From Felis catus (taxonomy: Eukaryota): DNA of 64,000 bases. The stretch's first letter is position 1; every line of letters begins with the position of its first letter. Below are positions 679 to 19,047 of the stretch, one piece after another. A model generated the notes under the pieces. It did no database searches, had not been told where the DNA came from, and worked only from the letters and a program-made list of their open reading frames with translations. The stretch spans positions 18,104,001 to 18,168,000 of the forward strand of contig NC_058383.1 of NCBI RefSeq assembly GCF_018350175.1. Direction: 5' to 3'. The position numbers and the translations under genes are program-made.

Positions 679-2636
679 TTCGGGCAATTTGATTATGGTG
701 TGCCTCGGTGGAGATTCTTGTGGGTAAGATTTGTTGAGCTTCTTATATCTGTTGGTTTATAATTTTCAATAAGCTTGGAAATTATTCAGCCATTACTTCT
801 TAAAATATTTTTCCATCTCTCTGTCTCTCCTCTCCTTCAACTCCAATCATTCACACACTAGGCCAATTGAGGTCATCCCACAGCACACTAATGCACTTTT
901 CATTAACAAAACTTCCTTTCTGACACATCTTGGGGAGAAGCCAAGATGGCAGAACAGCATGGAAGTTTTTTGTGTGTCTCGCGTCCATGAAATACAGCCA
1001 GAACAACACTAAACCATCCTGCACACCTAGAAAACTGAACTGAGGCTTAACACAACAGTGTGCACAACCTGAACCACAGAATTCAGCAGGTACACCGTGC
1101 AGATGTGAACTGCCAAGGAGGGTAGGGACCCGCTTTTGCATGTGGAGAGAGGATGGAGACGTGCAAATAGAGAGAGGATGGGGACATGAGGGGAAAGCAC
1201 CCCCTCAAAAGCAGCTAGAGAGAAAGTGGAAAGTGGAAACAGCCATAGGATAAAAAGGAGAAGGAGAAAAGAGAGGGTTTAAATTCCATTAAGACTCTAT
1301 AAACAGGAGGAGTGCAGAGGCTGAAACTCCGCAGCTGACACCTGGCGGTGCGCTGGCGGGAAGAGCAAATCCCCAGGAGCAGAGTGGCATCCGGGGTTCT
1401 TCAGGCCACAACAGGAGGGCGGTTCCCCTGCTGGGAGGACACCTGTGTGGTTCCCCAAAGGCAAGGCCCCAGTGGACCCGGGAGAACAACCACATTCGTT
1501 GGTACTGGAACAGGGTCATTGGGGGTAAGCCTGGTGCCAGATGCGTGTTGTGATTTTCCATAGTCCCTGAAATGCTGCTGCTACACTATTGTGTGAACTT
1601 ATTCTGGGGCGGGCTGGCACCCAACCACAGTCTCTGGGCGTCGGCAGCAGCACGGTCTCTCAAACGTTCTTGGGTGCGGCTGGCACCAGGCCATTGCTTG
1701 GTGAGACCCTCCACAGAGGGCAGAACGGGTCAAAGCCCCAGTCCCTCAGAAGTAAGGGGCCAGAAAAACAGCCACATCAGAGACAAAACTCAGGAGGGAG
1801 GTGCTGCCTGGGGCTTGGTCACGAACTACATAAAAGCGGGGAGTGGATGGAAGCTGAATACAAAGGACGGGTGTGTGATTGCTGATCGGGGAGAACAGAG
1901 TTCTGATACTAGAGAATGGTTGGCTGGATGAAGCCATTTTCACCACTCCCGTGCGTGCGCAAATGCACCTACAACAAGCGCCACAACCGTCCACCCCAGC
2001 AAGCTAAGCAGTGCCATCTAGTGGAGAACGGAGCCATTACACTAAGTTCCGCCCAACTGGGCCAACCTCGCTCTTTAGGAACAGAAGACTCTCCGCCTGC
2101 TTAGTTTATGGACTATAAAGTGCTTCATAGTTTGACTACTAGGAGAAAACGAAATAATTTCAGTCGTATTTCAGTCTGCTCACTATTCCATCTATTCAAT
2201 TTTCTTTCTTTTTTTTTTCCTTTCTTCTTTATTCTCTTTTTCATTTCTTTTTCTTGAATACAGAAAAAAATGAAAATCATTTATTTTCTATTTTTATTAT
2301 GATATTTTTCTTTATTTTTCCTACTATATTTTTTAATTTTCTGTATTTTTTTCTAATTCTATTTTACTTCCATCATTTCATTTTAGTCTACTTCAGTGTA
2401 TTCATTTTTTTCAAAATTTCAAATGATTTCCTTTTTTTTTCCTTTCCCCCTTTTTCTCTAATCTATCAAGCCCCTTTCAAAGCCCTGACCAAAACACACC
2501 TAGGATCTTGGATCATTTATTCGATTTTGTGTGTGTGTGTGTGTTTGTTTTTAATTTTTTAAGTTTAATATTTTTTAATTTTAGTATTTTTAAAATTTTA
2601 TTTTTTTACCTCATTCATTCTTTTTCTCCCTTCAAA

Positions 2637-3514
2637 ATGATGAAACGAAGGAATTCAACCCAAAAGAAAGAGCAGGAAGAAACGACAGCTAGGGACTTAC
2701 CCAACACAGAAACAAACAAGATGCCTGAACCAGAATTTAGAATCATGAGAATAAGAATACTAGCTGGAGTTGAAAATAGATTAGAATCCCTTTCTGGGAA
2801 GATAAAAGAAGTAAAGTCTAATCAGGATGAAATAAAAAATGGTATAACTGAGCTGCAATCTCGAATGGAAGCCACAGAAGCAAAGATGGATGAGACAGAA
2901 CAGAGAATCCGTGATATAGAGGACAAACTTATGGAGAATAATGAAGCAGAGAAAAAGAGGGAGATTAAGGGAAAAGGGCACGATTTAAGAACTAGGGAAA
3001 TCAGTGACTCATTAAAAAGGAACAACATCAGAATCATAGGGGTCCCAGAAGAGGAAGGGAGAGAAATAGGGGTAGAAGGGTTATGTGAGCAAATCATAGT
3101 GGGAAACTTTCCTAACCTGGGGAATACACAGACATAAAAATCCAGGAAGCACAGAGGCCCCCACTAGATTAAAAAAACCGACCATCAACAAGGCATATCA
3201 GAGTCAAATTCACAAAATACTCCGACAAGGAGAGAATCATGAAAGCAGCAAGGGAAAAAGAGTCCCTAACCTACAAGGGAGGACAGATCAGGTTTGCAGC
3301 AGACCTATCCACAGAAACTTGGCAGGCCAGAAAGGAGTGGCAGGATATAGTCAATGTGCTGAATTGGAAAAATATGCACCCAAGAATTCTTTATCCAGCA
3401 AGGCTGTCATTCAAAATAGAAGGAGACATAAAAAGTTTCCCAGACAAACAAAAATTAAAGGAGTTTGTGACCACTAAACCAGCCCTGCAAGAAATTTTAA
3501 GGGGGACTCTCTGA
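2637..3514 (+). pseudogene. L1 ORF1p (frameshifted)
   Basis: ATG 2637 MMKRRNSTQKKEQ, coiled coil, RNNIRIIGVPEE, then after frameshifts MKAAREKESLTYKG..ADLSTET..YPARLSF..EFVTTKPALQEIL; these are L1 ORF1 motifs. Confidence 0.9.
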
Positions 3515-3630
3515 GGGGAGAAAAGATGAAACAAAAAACAAAAATAAATAAATAAATAAAGACCAAAAGCAACAAAGACTAGAAAGGACCAGAGAACACC
3601 ACCAGACACTCCAACTCCACAAACAACATA

Positions 3631-4505
3631 ATGGCAATAAATTCATATCTTTCAGTACTCACTCTAAATGTCAATGGACTAGATGCTCCAATCAAAAGAC
3701 ACAGGGTAACAGAATGGATTAAGAAAACAAGATCCATCTATATGCTGCTTACAAGAGACCCACTTTAGACCTACAGACACCTTCAGATTGAAAGTAAGGG
3801 GATGGAGAACCATGTATCATGCTAACGGTCAACAAAAGAAAGCCGGAGTAGCCATACTTATATCAGACAATCTAGACTTTAAAATAAAGACTGTATCACG
3901 AGATGAAGAAGGGCATTATATCATACATAAGGCGTCTATCCACCAAGAAGACCTAACAATTGTAAACATTTATGTGCCAAATGTGTGAGCACCCAAATAT
4001 ATAAATCAATTAATCACAAACATAAAGAACCTCATTGATAGTAATACCATAATAGTAGGAGACTTCAACACCCCACTCACAGCAATGGACAGATCACCTA
4101 ATCAAAAAATCAACCAGGAAACAATAGCTTTGAATGACACACTGGACCAGATGGATATAACAGATATATTCAGAACACTTATTCCTAAAGCAGTGGAATA
4201 TACATTCTTCTCCAGTGCACATGGAACGTTCTCCAGAATAGACCACATGCTGGGACACAAATCAGCCCTCAACAAGTACAAAAAGATCGAGATCATACTG
4301 TGCATATTTGCAGACCACAACGCTATGAAACTCGAAATCAACCACAAGAAAACATGTGGAAGGGTAACAAATACTTGGAGACTAAACAATATCCTACTAA
4401 AGAATGAATGGGCTAAGCAAGAAGTTAAAGAAGAAATTAAAAAGTTCGTGGAAGCCAATGAAAATGATAACACCACAACCCCAAACCTCTGGGATGCAGG
4501 AAAGC
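3631..4505 (+). pseudogene. L1 ORF2 endonuclease (APE) domain, disrupted; RT and C-terminal domains absent
   Basis: TLNVNG, LQETH, KKAGVAIL, DEEGHYI, VGDFNTPL, FSRIDH and NLWDA motifs with stops/frameshifts; nothing RT-like follows. Confidence 0.9.
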
Positions 4506-6019
4506 TAAATTAGTCAGTCAGAGAAAGACAAATATCATATGACTTCATTCATATGAGGACTTTAAGACCCAGAACAGATGGACATAAGGGAAGAGAAGCA
4601 CAAATAACATAAGAACAGGTAGGGGAACAAAACATGAGACTCTTAAATATGGAGAACAGAGAGTTACTGGAAGGGTGGTGGGAGGGGACATGGGCTAAAT
4701 GGGTAAGGGTCATTAAGGTATCTACTCCTGAAATCTTTGGATGTAAATTAAAAACAACAAAACAAAACAAAAGAAAATAAAAACTTCCTTTCTCTGTGTG
4801 TTTCGTTTAGATAATTTCTGTGGCTATGCCTTTAGCTTCACTAATCTTTTCTTCTGCAATGTCAAATCTACTGTTGATTCCATTCAGTGTAGTTTTCATC
4901 TCTGACACTGTAATTTTCTGTATTTTTTTAAGATTTTACTTTTTTAAGTAATCTCGACACCCAACGTGGAGCTCAAACTCACAACCCCGAGAGTAAGAGC
5001 TGCGTGCTCTACCGACTGAGCCAGCCAAGCGTCCCTGACATTGGAATTTTCATTTCTTTCTTATATGTCCATGTCTCTATTTAACTTTTAAAAACATATG
5101 GAATACCATTATAATAGCTGTTTAATGTTCTTTTCTGCTCCCTCTAGCGTTTGTATCAGTGCTGGGTTGGTTTCAATTGATTGATGATTCTCCTCATTCT
5201 GCGTCATGTATAATCTCTGGTTGCTTGGCCAGCGTTGTGAATTTTACTTTGCCGAGTGCCAGATACTTTGATAATCTGTGTGATTTGTTAGGCAGGTGCA
5301 TAGTAGTGTTCAGCTTGGGGATGATTATTCTCCACTACTAAGTGAAACCCTTCCTGAACACTCTGCCCTCCACTTTGTCACATTGCTAGTCGGGCTGGTG
5401 CGTAAAGGCCTTGAGCACAGCCGCCTGCAGAGATGGCTCTCACACTAGTGTCTCAAAGGACAAATCTCGCTTGTTTTCCTTTCTCTCTGGGATTGCGAGC
5501 CATGTTACTGCCTTTCATTGCTTGGTGTCCACTGTTTTGAAAACCGTTGTATCGTGTGTTTTGTCTGGTTTTGTTGCAGTGGTGGTGGTGGTTTCTGGCG
5601 GGAAGGTAAAACTGGTCCCTGTGACTCCACCTTGAGGAGAAGCAGGGATCTTGGTGTGTGTGTTTCTAAGAGCTCCCAGGTGATCCAGGGTGCAGCCAGG
5701 TAAGAGCCACTTTACAGACCTGTTTTCTCTGCTTGAAATGTTTTTTTCTCAGTCAAATAGAATCTTTGATTATCTCCTCTCCTCCATTTTCTTGGTGCTC
5801 TCTGGAACTTCTGTTAGATTAATATGGAATACATTGGCCCTCCATCTCTTAACTTTTCTTTCATATTTTCCATTTCTTTGTCATTTTGTTCTACATCCTG
5901 AGAGATTTTTAAACTTTTCGTCTCATACCTTCCTTTGATTAGCTTTTTCTTTTTTCTTTTTTAACGTAAGTAGCCTTCATGCCAAGGATGGAGCCCAACG
6001 CGGAGCTTGACCTCACACA

Positions 6020-15500: not shown

Positions 15501-15610
15501 TGTTTGCTCAGGTGGTGAGGTTCACACGATAAAGAGCAGGCAGAGGGCTTGGACCTGGTATAAAAGACCTGGAAGTTTCCAGGTGATTACTTTGCACCTG
15601 GAACTGCCAG
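15501..15610 (+). promoter_or_regulatory. ZG16: ZG16 core promoter and short non-coding exon 1
   Basis: TATAAAA 15559-15565, FOXA-like TGTTTGC 15501, GATAA 15528, E-boxes CAGGTG/CACCTG, donor CAG|GTGAGG at 15610/15611. Confidence 0.7.
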
Positions 15611-16526
15611 GTGAGGGGTGACAGAGGCCTGGGCTAAGGGGTGAAAGGGATGACTGGATTTGAGTTAGGGGGGGAATTCAAGCAGCGGTGGACAGCAGCC
15701 TGCCTGGAGTGAGCGGCAGGGGAGACCTGTGTGGCAGCTGCCTGGGGCATCTGAGGGAGGTGCAAAGTATCTGGGTCTCAGAGGAAGGACGGGAGACACC
15801 TGGGATGCTCGGGGTATCGATACACCCAGATTTGTGTTAGTGGAGAAAGAATTATGACAAATAGACCAGGCATCTGGAATCTGATATCTTGAGCTGTGGT
15901 CCAAACTCGTTGTGCAGTTTCTCAACTGTTCCGATGCTGGTATTGGCACAGTCTCATCTATAATCACCCTCACTGCCTGGGTGACACAGAGACGCACCCC
16001 TAAAATGCTCCTTTCCTTCTGATTTGAGACCCAGCTAAAGCTAGGAACTTAAACTCTGCCCCAGAGGTCCCCCTAGCCAGGCCCATGTGTCACAGGCAGG
16101 TTGCAGTTAGGTTTTGCTCAGAATCCTGGTTTGGTAAACTCAACCATCTCTATGGTTTGGAGATGGCCTCCACTTCTTTGAAACTCTTTTCCTGCTTTGT
16201 GCCAGGAGGGACCAGGACTTACACAGGTTGGTTCAGACAGAGGCTTAGGACTGATCTTCTGACTCAGGATCGAACAAGGGGGTCGACTACCTCGAGACCA
16301 GGGAGGACAGAGGGGTTAAGGACACCGTACCTGCCAGGAGCAGGACTAGAGACTAGGGGCAATCCTTTCTGAGCCCAAGACTGGGTCAGTTAGGTCTGAG
16401 TTGAGGGACAAAGAGGGCCGAGTTTCAATTGGAGATCTAACCCAGGGAAGCCTGGGTAAATGAAGTCCAAAGGAAACAGGGTGAATGAACCTTGACGTTC
16501 TCCTTTCTTTCCCTTCCAGCCCCAGA

Positions 16527-17877
16527 ATGTTGACCATTGCTCTTCTTGCCCTTGTCTGCGCATCAGCCTCGGCCAATGCCAGTAAGTGAGAAGCCAGGAG
16601 CCCAGTATTAGCGTCATGGGAAGGCAGCTTCCTGCTCTGCCAGTGGCCAAGGCTTGCAGGGGCTGGCTTGGGGTGGTGGGCGTCGAGTTGTGGGAGGTGT
16701 AGGAGTGGTGAGGAGGGACTGGAGCTCTTGAGATCTCTCCTTCTGAAGCCTACTGTCCCCTCCAGTTCAGGCTAGGTCCTCCTCCTACAATGGAGAGTAT
16801 GGAGGCGATGGAGGCGAGCGATTCTCCCATTCTGGTTACCAGCTGGAGGGCCCCATCACTGCCATCCGGGTCCGCATCGACAACAACTACATCATAGGGT
16901 AAGATTCTTTGTGTGTCTGTGGTTTGGGGGTCTTCTCTGATCCTACCACACTGGAAAGTTCTCAGTCACTTTGGGTCACATCTGTTTCAGTCAACAAGTC
17001 CCAGGGACAACTTGGGATGTGAAAGGTATCAGGAGGCTGGGGTCTGAGGCCGGTGCTGCTACAGCCCTACAGCCCCCAGCGTGCACGTCTTGGGCAAATC
17101 TGTACCACAGCCGCTGAGGTGCTGGGAAGCTGGCTACTATGGCCCCACCTGAGGTGTAGATCCCCTCGGGCATCCTCCATCTTGGCTGACGCCTCTCCCC
17201 AAAACATGTATCCTTCTGATCCTGGGGCAACAGAGTCTCTTCCCTCATGAAAGCCGTCCAGAAAGGCCCATCTGCTTCTTTCACGTAGGGGTTGGGGGCA
17301 CAGCCGGAACCTAGATTTCAAAGTGAAGCTCTACCACTGTCCGGGGGGCTCCGGCCAAGTTACTTTTCCTCTCTGAGCCTATCTGTCGGCAAAAGGAGTT
17401 GAAGTTCACAGTGGGACCTCAAGGGCTCCCTCATCCCTCACACACCTTGGGACTGGCAGGGGACCTGTCATCTCTGCCACCAGTTTGTAGGTCTCTCGGC
17501 TTGTAGGCCAAGAGGTCCTGAATTCCAATCACCCTGCTCAGTCTTCCCTCCCTCACCATCCCCCTCCCCCCAGCCTCCAGGTGCGCTATGGCAAGGTGTG
17601 GAGCGACTATGTGGGTGGCACCCAGGGAGACCTGGAGGAGATTTTCCTGCACCCCGGGGAGTCAGTGATCCAGGTGTCTGGCAAGTACGACTACTACCTG
17701 AGGAAGCTGGTCTTTGTGACTAACAAGGGCCGGTACCTGCCTTTTGGGACAGACATAGGCAGGAGTTTCAGTGCTGTCCCCTTGTACCACAACACCGTAC
17801 TACGATTTGTTAGCGGTCGCGCTAGCACCCTCATCAATGCCATCGGCCTGCACTGGGACTTCTACCGCAGGTATTGA
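16527..17877 (+). CDS. ZG16: Zymogen granule protein 16 (jacalin-like lectin), 163 aa; coding exons 16527-16581, 16766-16898, 17574-17877
   Basis: Signal peptide MLTIALLALVCASASANA, then IQARSSSYNGEYGGDGGERFSHSG..GPITAIRVR, and GLQVRYGKVWSDYVGG..LEEIFLHPGESVIQVSGKY..AIGLHWD. GT-AG sites; 55+133+304 = 492 nt keeps frame. Confidence 0.96.
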
Positions 17878-17943
17878 ACCAGTTGCTGAACCGCTGCAGC
17901 CGGCTGTGAGAACCGCCTTACCACTACCCCACCTACAGGGTTC

Positions 17944-17949
17944 AATAAA
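17944..17949 (+). terminator. ZG16: ZG16 polyadenylation signal
   Basis: AATAAA about 65 nt after the stop, second AATAAA nearby, GT-rich sequence downstream. Confidence 0.75.
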
Positions 17950-19047
17950 AATAATAATAAAAGGACATAGCTGACGCTGGAGTGTATGTGGGTGTGTGCA
18001 GCTGGGACCCGCCTCCTGACTCTGGCTGTGGATGTGTGAATGTCCTTTCTGGCTATCTATAGATGTCTTTCTGGTGAAGAGTGGGAGGGAGAGAGAGAGA
18101 GAGGTGTAAAAGTGTTGGGCTTTTCTTCCTGGTTTATGGAGAAGAGATAAGATTCTGGATTGCTCCAACTCTTTTTTTCAAGGATAGCTCCTGAGACTGT
18201 TTACCCAAACTGGAGTTAAGCCTGAGGGTGCAGCCTAGCTTCCTCCCCAAACCCCAGATGTCCCAGTCTCTAGGCCTTGTCTCCCCTTGAGATAGTGTTT
18301 CCCCACCAAAAGGCTGTCACCTGGCTCTCTTGGCATTAACCACTTGCTGTCTCTGGGTGGCCTGGGCCATTTTCTTTCGTGCTTTTCCAGAATCCACCTG
18401 TCTCCTGAAGCTTGGCCTAAGTTTGTGTCGAGAACTCTGTCTCTTACTCCAGCCTAGTCCCTCCTCACCTTTACCCATAAGCACTGATGCTCCCTGATTA
18501 GCTTAGCTCGCTCAGAATTGGGCTTCTTTCCCTAGGAAGCTGCCACCTCCTCAACAGCTTCTATTCTGCCAATTCCATCCTCAAAAAAAGGGCATTCCAA
18601 GAGGGATAGATGTCCATGGTGGGTTTCTGTGAACGTCGGAGGTTGGATACCATTCAGGGGAAGCAAAAGAGTGGCTGGATAGATTCAGCAAGGATACAAA
18701 GTCGCTTTGGAAATAATTCTTGGGACTCTAGTGCCCAGTCCTAAAATTACCACAGTGTTTTGTTTTTGCCTTTTGGTGGTGGTGGTTGGGGGTGAGGGAA
18801 GGCACTCATTGCTCCCCAAAGATTTATTCACATTATGGTGAATGCCAGAGTCACATTTCTTCCCAATTAGACAAAGATAACAATTATGTACATGTAATTC
18901 GAGGAAGAAATATTAACATTACAGAAACAAACTCATGCCTAGAGAGTTTTTAGAACAATTCCTTTATTTCTCTCAAAGAATTCCATGGGATGGAGTATCA
19001 TGTCAGAGTAATTTGTTTTGAGATATAAAGTACATAAAATTCACCCA

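Follow-up and report, generated by a model that had tools for sequence, protein, structure and literature searches.

A widespread natural Asp/Asn difference at residue 151 of mammalian ZG16, and a third tandem copy in the cat with signs of a re-aimed binding face

Human ZG16, a β-prism lectin of the jacalin type, holds mannose by eight hydrogen bonds, two of which are made by the side chain of Asp151 to O4 and O6 of the sugar (Kanagawa 2014, PMC4059138), and three of which are backbone NH contacts. The same work described the laboratory mutant D151N, in which binding of mannose probes was diminished and heparin binding enhanced, and mapped heparin binding to K36, R37 and R55 (R58 in rat) together with a patch formed by K102, K106 and K122 (PMC4059138). 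Asp151 closes the GxxxD motif of the jacalin lectins and is called conserved in the structural papers (PMC4059138, PMC9291870), which treat mannose binding as central and describe the physiological role of ZG16 as poorly understood. The C-terminal tail with its CxxC motif is described as flexible, as lying at the far end of the domain and contributing little to the structure, and as varying in other mammals too (PMC9291870). A jacalin fold lacking GxxxD is likewise already known from ZG16B, which still binds bacterial polysaccharide (PMC10235990).

Here we report the analysis of a ZG16-type gene in a stretch of 64,000 nt of the cat genome, hereafter the window (Felis catus, GCF_018350175.1, NC_058383.1, 18,104,001-18,168,000, forward strand). 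A first-pass annotation had presented it as the cat ZG16, otherwise intact, with a natural D151N. It is actually one of three tandem cat ZG16 genes, named A, B and C below, the window gene being C. Existing annotation already names it ZG16 or ZG16-like, a known kind of gene, and its protein is identical throughout to database entries under the name Felis catus. The coding exons of 55, 133 and 304 nt are laid out as in the sister copies and separated by GT-AG introns; these borders, the TATA box and the poly(A) signal are present as annotated earlier (Table 1). Earlier inspection missed the TGA at codon 164, which ends the protein at 163 residues and removes the C-terminal CxxC that both sisters retain as C-G-S-C. 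The whole protein matches PF01419 (Jacalin) with 74.6 bits (cutoff 22), is 78% identical to human ZG16 in the alignment and 76-78% identical to the crystal sequences. Its leader and exon layout fit a secreted ZG16-type protein, the signal peptide being judged by homology. Pfam searches over 17 long open frames of the window named no neighbouring genes. Window positions 2427-4513 contain open frames that match an endonuclease domain (PF03372, 28 bits) as well as one resembling a coiled coil; these are probably remnants of LINE-1 within the duplicated block.

Table 1. Features of copy C in window coordinates, and related cat loci in genome coordinates
Feature	Position	Strand	Basis or remark
TATA box TATAAA	15559..15564	+	sequence; region 91-95% identical in both sister copies
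Probable short non-coding first exon, GT donor at its end	15590..15610	+	start guessed; inferred from AG|GTGAG at 15609-15615
First coding exon: start codon ATG at 16527 and signal-peptide-like leader	16527..16581	+	gene model; donor GTAAGT; helix 3-16 in structure model
Second coding exon, codons 19-63	16766..16898	+	AG/GT borders; tblastn
GG loop G31-G32-D33-G34-G35; Asp33 (GAT 16807-16809) private to copy C	16801..16815	+	sisters GGGGG
Hairpin tip 56-59, I-D-N-N (sisters V-N-R-Y); basic Arg58 gone	16876..16887	+	gene models
Last coding exon, codons 63-163 and stop; most of the jacalin β-prism domain	17574..17877	+	alignment; Pfam PF01419
Island of divergence from both sisters: codons 102-167 and 3' UTR; K102D, K122T, T124I, T126R	17689..17965	+	private-base counts
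Binding loop R145-A-S-T-L-I-N151; AAT 17836-17838; Ser147 for Gly of GxxxD	17818..17838	+	Asn151 common with sisters, Ser147/Thr148 not
TGA codon 164 (17875-17877), then vestigial tail T-S-C-stop	17875..17889	+	sisters have TGT (Cys) at codon 164
Poly(A) signal AATAAA	17944..17949	+	sequence
Further intact ZG16 gene upstream of the window (L005)	G000:C41:18070969-18072331		
Further intact ZG16 gene upstream of the window (L006)	G000:C41:18097457-18098804		
ZG16B/WGA16-like exon (L004)	G000:C41:38894362-38894655		39% identical; loop C-K-L-L-G-I-T, no GxxxD

Codons 145-151 of the window gene are CGC GCT AGC ACC CTC ATC AAT, i.e. R-A-S-T-L-I-N as had been read, although the start given for the loop (17821) is codon 146 and the loop begins at 17818. 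The last exon aligns without gaps to human ZG16 (PDB), placing Asn at the Asp151 site and Ser at the Gly147 site. Contigs from two of four public sequencing runs, belonging to different studies, span 17828 onward with no other letter listed, the AAT codon lying only 8 bases inside the contigs that cover it, and the other two runs gave no contig on this stretch; all 13 felid orthologue proteins of copy C that were compared carry Asn151. A sequencing or assembly error is ruled out by these contigs, the sister copies and the orthologues taken together. The Asp reported in the GG loop (GGDGG, GAT at 16807) is present as well; it leaves G34-G35, and with it the Gly35 of the GG loop, in place, and position 33 varies widely among mammals. 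Evidence for expression amounts to two contigs, with no spliced read among them; one has a depth of 682 and comes from a run whose RNA origin is a guess, and its end at 17963, 14 bases past the poly(A) signal, is a weak hint at the 3' end of a transcript.

In the genome search, whose counts are lower bounds, the last exon of ZG16 turned up at three places in a span of 50 kb, and a distant exon of the ZG16B type lay 20.8 Mb from this tandem cluster; the 4 matches listed include no back-up copy with Asp151. The splice sites of copies A, B and C are all intact, and each copy has ATC AAT as codons 150-151, so that GxxxD is absent from C (S-T-L-I-N) and from A and B (G-A-L-I-N) alike. A and B differ from each other at five amino acids and both keep G147, GGGGG and C-G-S-C, while C is separated from A by 24 residue differences and the stop, and is 84-85% identical to its sisters. 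The upstream genes sit in duplicated blocks of about 23-27 kb, and window positions 147-21968 are mostly tandem duplication matching the upstream blocks at 85-97%. Divergence between A and B is 1.4-1.5% in intron 2 and the 3' flank and 7-8.5% in intron 1 and the 5' flank, a mosaic that points to gene conversion.

To place residue 151 in a wider setting, we aligned 214 species-named sequences drawn from two protein searches and three cluster listings, leaving out unnamed sequences and some duplicates; the largest cluster is represented by 15 of its 99 members. Among the 165 named mammal sequences listed, 90 have Asn, 62 have Asp, and 13 have another residue or a gap. Asn151 is a widespread mammalian variant and not a novelty of the cat: it occurs in 45 of the 116 non-carnivoran mammal sequences listed and in all three cat copies. 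The felid-specific change proposed earlier therefore falls, Asn151 being common in non-carnivore mammals, an observation that the first-pass annotation had itself named as fatal to its reading. When each mammal genus is counted once by its main copy, Asn is found in 51 and Asp in 65 of 116 (44% Asn), a count that leaves out genera known from divergent copies only (meerkat with Asp, two hyenas with Asn, armadillo with His). In the sampled set Asn151 characterizes all bats, all whales, carnivores, hedgehog, rhinos, lagomorphs, colugo, sloth and elephant shrew, as well as opossum, dasyurids, bilby and the main copies of both monotremes. Asp151 is found in all primates, most rodents, ruminants, peccary, horse, dugong, tree shrew and the diprotodont marsupials. 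Platypus and echidna combine an Asn main copy with an Asp second copy. Outside mammals, Asp is present in 20 of the 20 amphibian sequences listed and in 23 of the 29 reptile sequences, the remainder being four from snakes with Asn and two with other residues.

Two further positions go with residue 151. Gly147 is invariant in the Asp151 mammal sequences (62/62) and missing from 30 of the 90 with Asn151, many of which are related felid copies; such a pattern would follow if only use of the mannose pocket constrained the motif to stay together as a unit. Tyr103 accompanies Asn151 in 63 of 90 sequences and Asp151 in 7 of 62. The Asn-type main copies are well conserved and do not look like decaying genes: the opossum core is matched at 122 of 130 positions by elephant shrew, hedgehog and ferret, at 121 by cat A, at 113 by human and at 107 by mouse, against 123 of 130 for the wallaby, a closer relative that bears Asp. 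Several lineages show peculiarities of their own. All 11 whale sequences (in the set P0145, P0148, P0152, P0227-P0239) have Asn151 with a one-residue insertion in the binding loop, and their GG loop is also altered, unlike that of ruminants and peccary. The rabbit has a large ZG16 expansion with Asn, Thr or Ser at residue 151 and varied GG loops (in the set P0012, P0076, P0081, P0153-P0181, P0294-P0300), and 'like' copies of cricetids and Acomys have Thr or Tyr there.

A link between the motif and felid obligate carnivory, as first proposed, is barely credible: all 29 felid sequences covering the site have Asn, yet outside carnivorans 39 of 104 genera have it too, for example rabbits, rhinos and fruit bats. 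What survives of the proposed link with diet is a wider form, the enrichment of Asn151 in animal-eating mammals. With provisional diets, assigned after the residues were seen, 36 of the 39 animal-eating genera have Asn151, against 15 of the 77 plant-eating ones. We simulated the residue on the tree regardless of diet and kept runs with similar counts and a similar number of changes. Under each of four models, one of them allowing only one-way loss, no more than 0.1% of 3000 runs produced a gap of this size; with six insect-eating omnivores counted as animal-eaters, the share was 0.1-0.6%. Pagel-type tests under three diet codings gave p values of 4e-4, 3e-5 and 0.02 (0.003, 2e-4 and 0.09 with 4 df); such tests over-call, and we hence prefer the simulations as the basis for the association. 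The whole signal is carried by only about 11 events. Plant-eaters with Asn include rhinos, rabbits, colugo, sloth, beaver, kangaroo rat, gundi, fruit bats and panda, and the exceptions with Asp are Dromiciops, tree shrew, grasshopper mouse and meerkat. A simple diet rule also fits poorly with the Asp of insect-eating amphibians and reptiles and of the second copies in platypus and echidna. The association as such is observed; as to its cause, Asp151 with invariant Gly147 likely marks lineages, mostly plant-eaters, that use the mannose pocket. A more far-reaching version is tentative. It would make residue 151 a two-state diet switch, in which the Asn form came first, bound anionic polymers and little mannose, and plant-eaters (primates, three rodent clades, ruminants, peccary, horse, dugong, and kangaroos and their kin) regained Asp about 9-11 times; recognition of mannose and fungi by the human protein would then be re-acquired, and carnivores would have built an extra, re-aimed copy resistant to conversion.

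Copy C departs from its sisters chiefly at one end of the domain. Its structure model is a confident β-prism (mean pLDDT 88) that overlays human ZG16 at an rmsd of 0.7-1.1 Å and matches ZG16 crystal structures with E 4e-23. Among residues 21-159 there are 18 changes private to C, of which 12 lie in the 35 residues of the sugar-binding end, 2 in the 38 of the far end and 4 in the other 66; the contrast between the two faces (12/35 vs 2/38) has a Fisher P of 0.002, with faces assigned by the strand order of the model and published loop names rather than by coordinates. The changes at the binding end are G33D, V56I/N57D/R58N/Y59N, K102D, K122T/T124I/T126R and S146A/G147S/A148T. Of the basic residues, R37, R55, R106 and R145 are kept and R58, K102 and K122 lost, whereas A and B keep all of them; the net charge of the domain is +1 in C against +5 and +7 in the sisters.

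These changes fall within an island of divergence in otherwise near-identical DNA. Over codons 64-101 copy C is identical to A and B (0/114 private bases), but codons 102-167 have 29 private bases in 198 against 13 in 671 in the adjacent intron 2 (P 7e-11). Codons 54-62 have 7 in 25, and the density peaks at 21 per 100 across the binding loop; all these counts rely on the likeness of A and B, which is lower in the 5' half. Synonymous divergence of the last exon (0.16-0.19) is far above that of intron 2 (0.03). The divergence continues into the non-coding 3' DNA, where most bins as far as about 18,780 hold 4-13 private bases per 100, and the 3' exon alignment of C is about 24 bases shorter than that of A; hence an indel could block conversion neutrally. 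A sign of conversion is seen in the jaguar, whose copy C protein has A-type sequence at 54-62. Divergence is thus concentrated at functional sites amid converted DNA, and likely marks selection against gene conversion, a neutral conversion block being the alternative.

Copy C is found across Felidae. The 13 felid proteins compared represent both Felinae and Pantherinae and all have residue 163 as their last. Of 146 sites, 29 are variable among them; for copy A the figure is 2 among 6 usable proteins of 7, one model being frameshifted. The variable sites include 33, 102, 147 and 148: Asp33 is present in 6 of 13, and position 147 is Ser in 10 and Gly in 3, so that the reported loss of GxxxD holds for the window gene, where the motif is absent, and the loss of Gly147 does not extend to every felid orthologue. 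The cheetah model (P0200) has 139 residues and no binding loop, which is either a lesion or an annotation fault, and some Panthera copies of the A/B type (P0131, P0189, P0192, P0198) have Ser147 with an intact CxxC tail. Beyond the felids, short-tailed second copies of hyena, meerkat and bear and an armadillo protein group with copy C (98/90, 70 columns), and AU tests do not reject separate duplications (p 0.68 with a poor quick tree; p 0.23 and 0.25). The armadillo ZG16 (P0035) and the second copies of bears (P0011, P0105, P0106) have in common R-A-S-T-x-I-H/N and a short tail ending in P-K; convergence and a very old duplicate are both conceivable sources of this likeness.

On balance we favour the following reading. 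The window gene is the third and most diverged tandem cat ZG16; its Asn151 is a widespread form that likely weakens mannose binding; and copy C has likely been re-aimed at a new ligand. In human ZG16 the carboxylate of Asp151 is described as bonding mannose O4 and O6 beside the basic patch for heparin-type sugars; Asn would remove that charge, as in the published human mutant, whose mannose binding falls and heparin binding rises. The suggestion that carbohydrate specificity was lost or switched hence agrees with that mutant as regards mannose, but the rise in heparin binding means that the loss is not total. The Asn form would work chiefly through the basic face. Copies A and B, which keep every element concerned (Gly147, the GG loop, R37, R55, R58, K102, R106, K122, R145 and the CxxC tail), are predicted to bind mainly anionic polymers, sulfated or otherwise, in mucus and secretory granules. 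Copy C, with the fold kept in the model, the sugar-binding end rebuilt, the charge lowered and the CxxC tail gone, is predicted to be a poor binder of both mannose and heparin and to take a less anionic ligand on the same face. Gene conversion appears to keep most of the three genes alike, with selection likely blocking it across the rebuilt loops.

The same peculiarities of copy C might instead be damage to a redundant duplicate that is slowly decaying under relaxed selection, which we consider possible but distinctly less probable. The nonsense codon at Cys164 suggests it, as do the 29 variable sites of felid copy C proteins against 2 in copy A, a contrast that relaxation and re-aiming explain equally well, and the shortened cheetah model; loops accept change more readily than strands, and the 3' indel could have ended conversion neutrally. 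However, the tail is flexible, far from the binding end and of little structural consequence (PMC9291870), so its loss need not matter for the fold. The frame, splice sites, TATA box and poly(A) signal are kept, and the sole stop lies after the last strand in proteins that are open to the same point in all 13 felids, which is not the picture of a pseudogene. The changes prefer the binding face over the loops of the far face. The dN/dS against the sisters is 0.56, below 1; this overall value cannot separate re-aiming from relaxation, and it was counted, with the face-biased changes, the island, the open felid frames and the intact fold, in favour of re-aiming. The capacity of ZG16B to bind bacterial polysaccharide in spite of lacking GxxxD was counted likewise.

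As to residue 151, the direction of change is the main issue. Parsimony requires 11 Asp/Asn changes in mammals, 14 if only D>N is allowed and 11 with N>D alone. On a time tree that is provisional, dates included, the free two-rate model fits best (lnL -41.7) and assigns Asn to the mammal root at 0.96; the value is 0.71 under equal rates, and 0.13 or 0.01, at lnL -47.3 or -48.0, when D>N is forced to be three or ten times faster. Depending on the model, then, Asn may be the ancestral mammalian state. The opposite polarity, as doubtful in our estimate as the diet switch, would have Asp151 ancestral and lost in about 14 separate Asn mutations at a CpG hot spot (ATC-GAT to ATC-AAT) in lineages with little need of mannose binding, the diet pattern being a by-product or chance. 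It is a real rival because an Asp codon after ATC creates a CpG: the base before codon 151 is C in all three cat copies, the outgroups mostly have Asp, and the forced faster D>N rates turn the ancestral mammal nodes to Asp. It accords less well with the better fit of the free-rate model (its rivals having lnL -47.3 to -48.1), with Asn in both monotreme main copies, with the restriction of main copies to D or N and no scatter of residues, and with the diet gap, whose simulated P is at most 0.006 under all four null models, including one-way loss. A scan of metagenomes for mammal DNA that would give codon context and dN/dS yielded 145 pattern hits and no confirmed relative. It is rather unlikely that compensating neighbours let the natural Asn151 forms retain binding of mannose or a related sugar, such that the human D151N result would not transfer. 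The pairing of Tyr103 with Asn151 hints at such a co-adapted pocket, three of the eight listed bonds to mannose come from backbone NH groups and array binding of the mutant was 'diminished' (PMC4059138), and the Asn-type copies A and B retain Gly147 and the GG loop; yet Gly147 is free to vary only in Asn151 proteins, and a second-hand report has the mutant abolishing mannose binding. Least probable among these alternatives is hidden paralogy, by which early mammals had an Asp copy and an Asn copy, blurred by conversion, of which lineages kept one. The monotremes with both forms recall such a state, as do the tandem extra copies in cats, bears, rabbits and rodents and the conversion evident in the cat, but a tree of residues 98-167, most of whose forks are open, does not unite the Asp proteins of primates, rodents, horse, cattle and glider.

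What stands is a widespread natural Asp/Asn switch at a key ZG16 residue, its association with diet, and a felid third copy with signs of re-aiming. In the literature open to full search, which takes in a minority of the subscription papers, we found no report of natural Asn151, of the ZG16 copy number of the cat or of a link between ZG16 and diet. If 44% of sampled mammal genera carry a mannose-off residue in a conserved protein, the core job of ZG16 is probably something else, and recognition of mannose or fungi would be optional. With about 11 natural switches and three near-identical cat proteins that differ in their binding faces, the question is directly testable. Results on mouse and human ZG16 should accordingly not be carried over to cats and other carnivores.

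In comparison with the described systems, copy C resembles human ZG16 (ZG16p; PDB: 3APA, 7O3I, 7O4P) in fold and residue numbering and keeps Tyr104, Gly35, Leu149, Arg37 and Arg55; it differs in having Asn151, Ser147 and Asp33, in lacking Lys102, Lys122 and the CxxC tail, and in belonging to a set of three tandem copies. The laboratory mutant D151N of human ZG16 (PMC4059138) has the very substitution of the cat copies, but natural Asn151 comes with other changes, namely Tyr103 and, in copy C, a rebuilt face. ZG16B and boar WGA16 (PDB: 3AQG, 3WOB) are, like copy C, secreted mammalian β-prism proteins without GxxxD, and ZG16B is reported to bind oral bacteria; they are distant paralogues, however, with 32-35% identity. 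Finally, an island of divergence at a functional surface within homogenized DNA is the pattern described by Teshima and Innan, with opsin and RH as examples (PMC3728101). Copy C follows this pattern at a surface whose functional difference is a prediction, and a neutral conversion block is a possible alternative.
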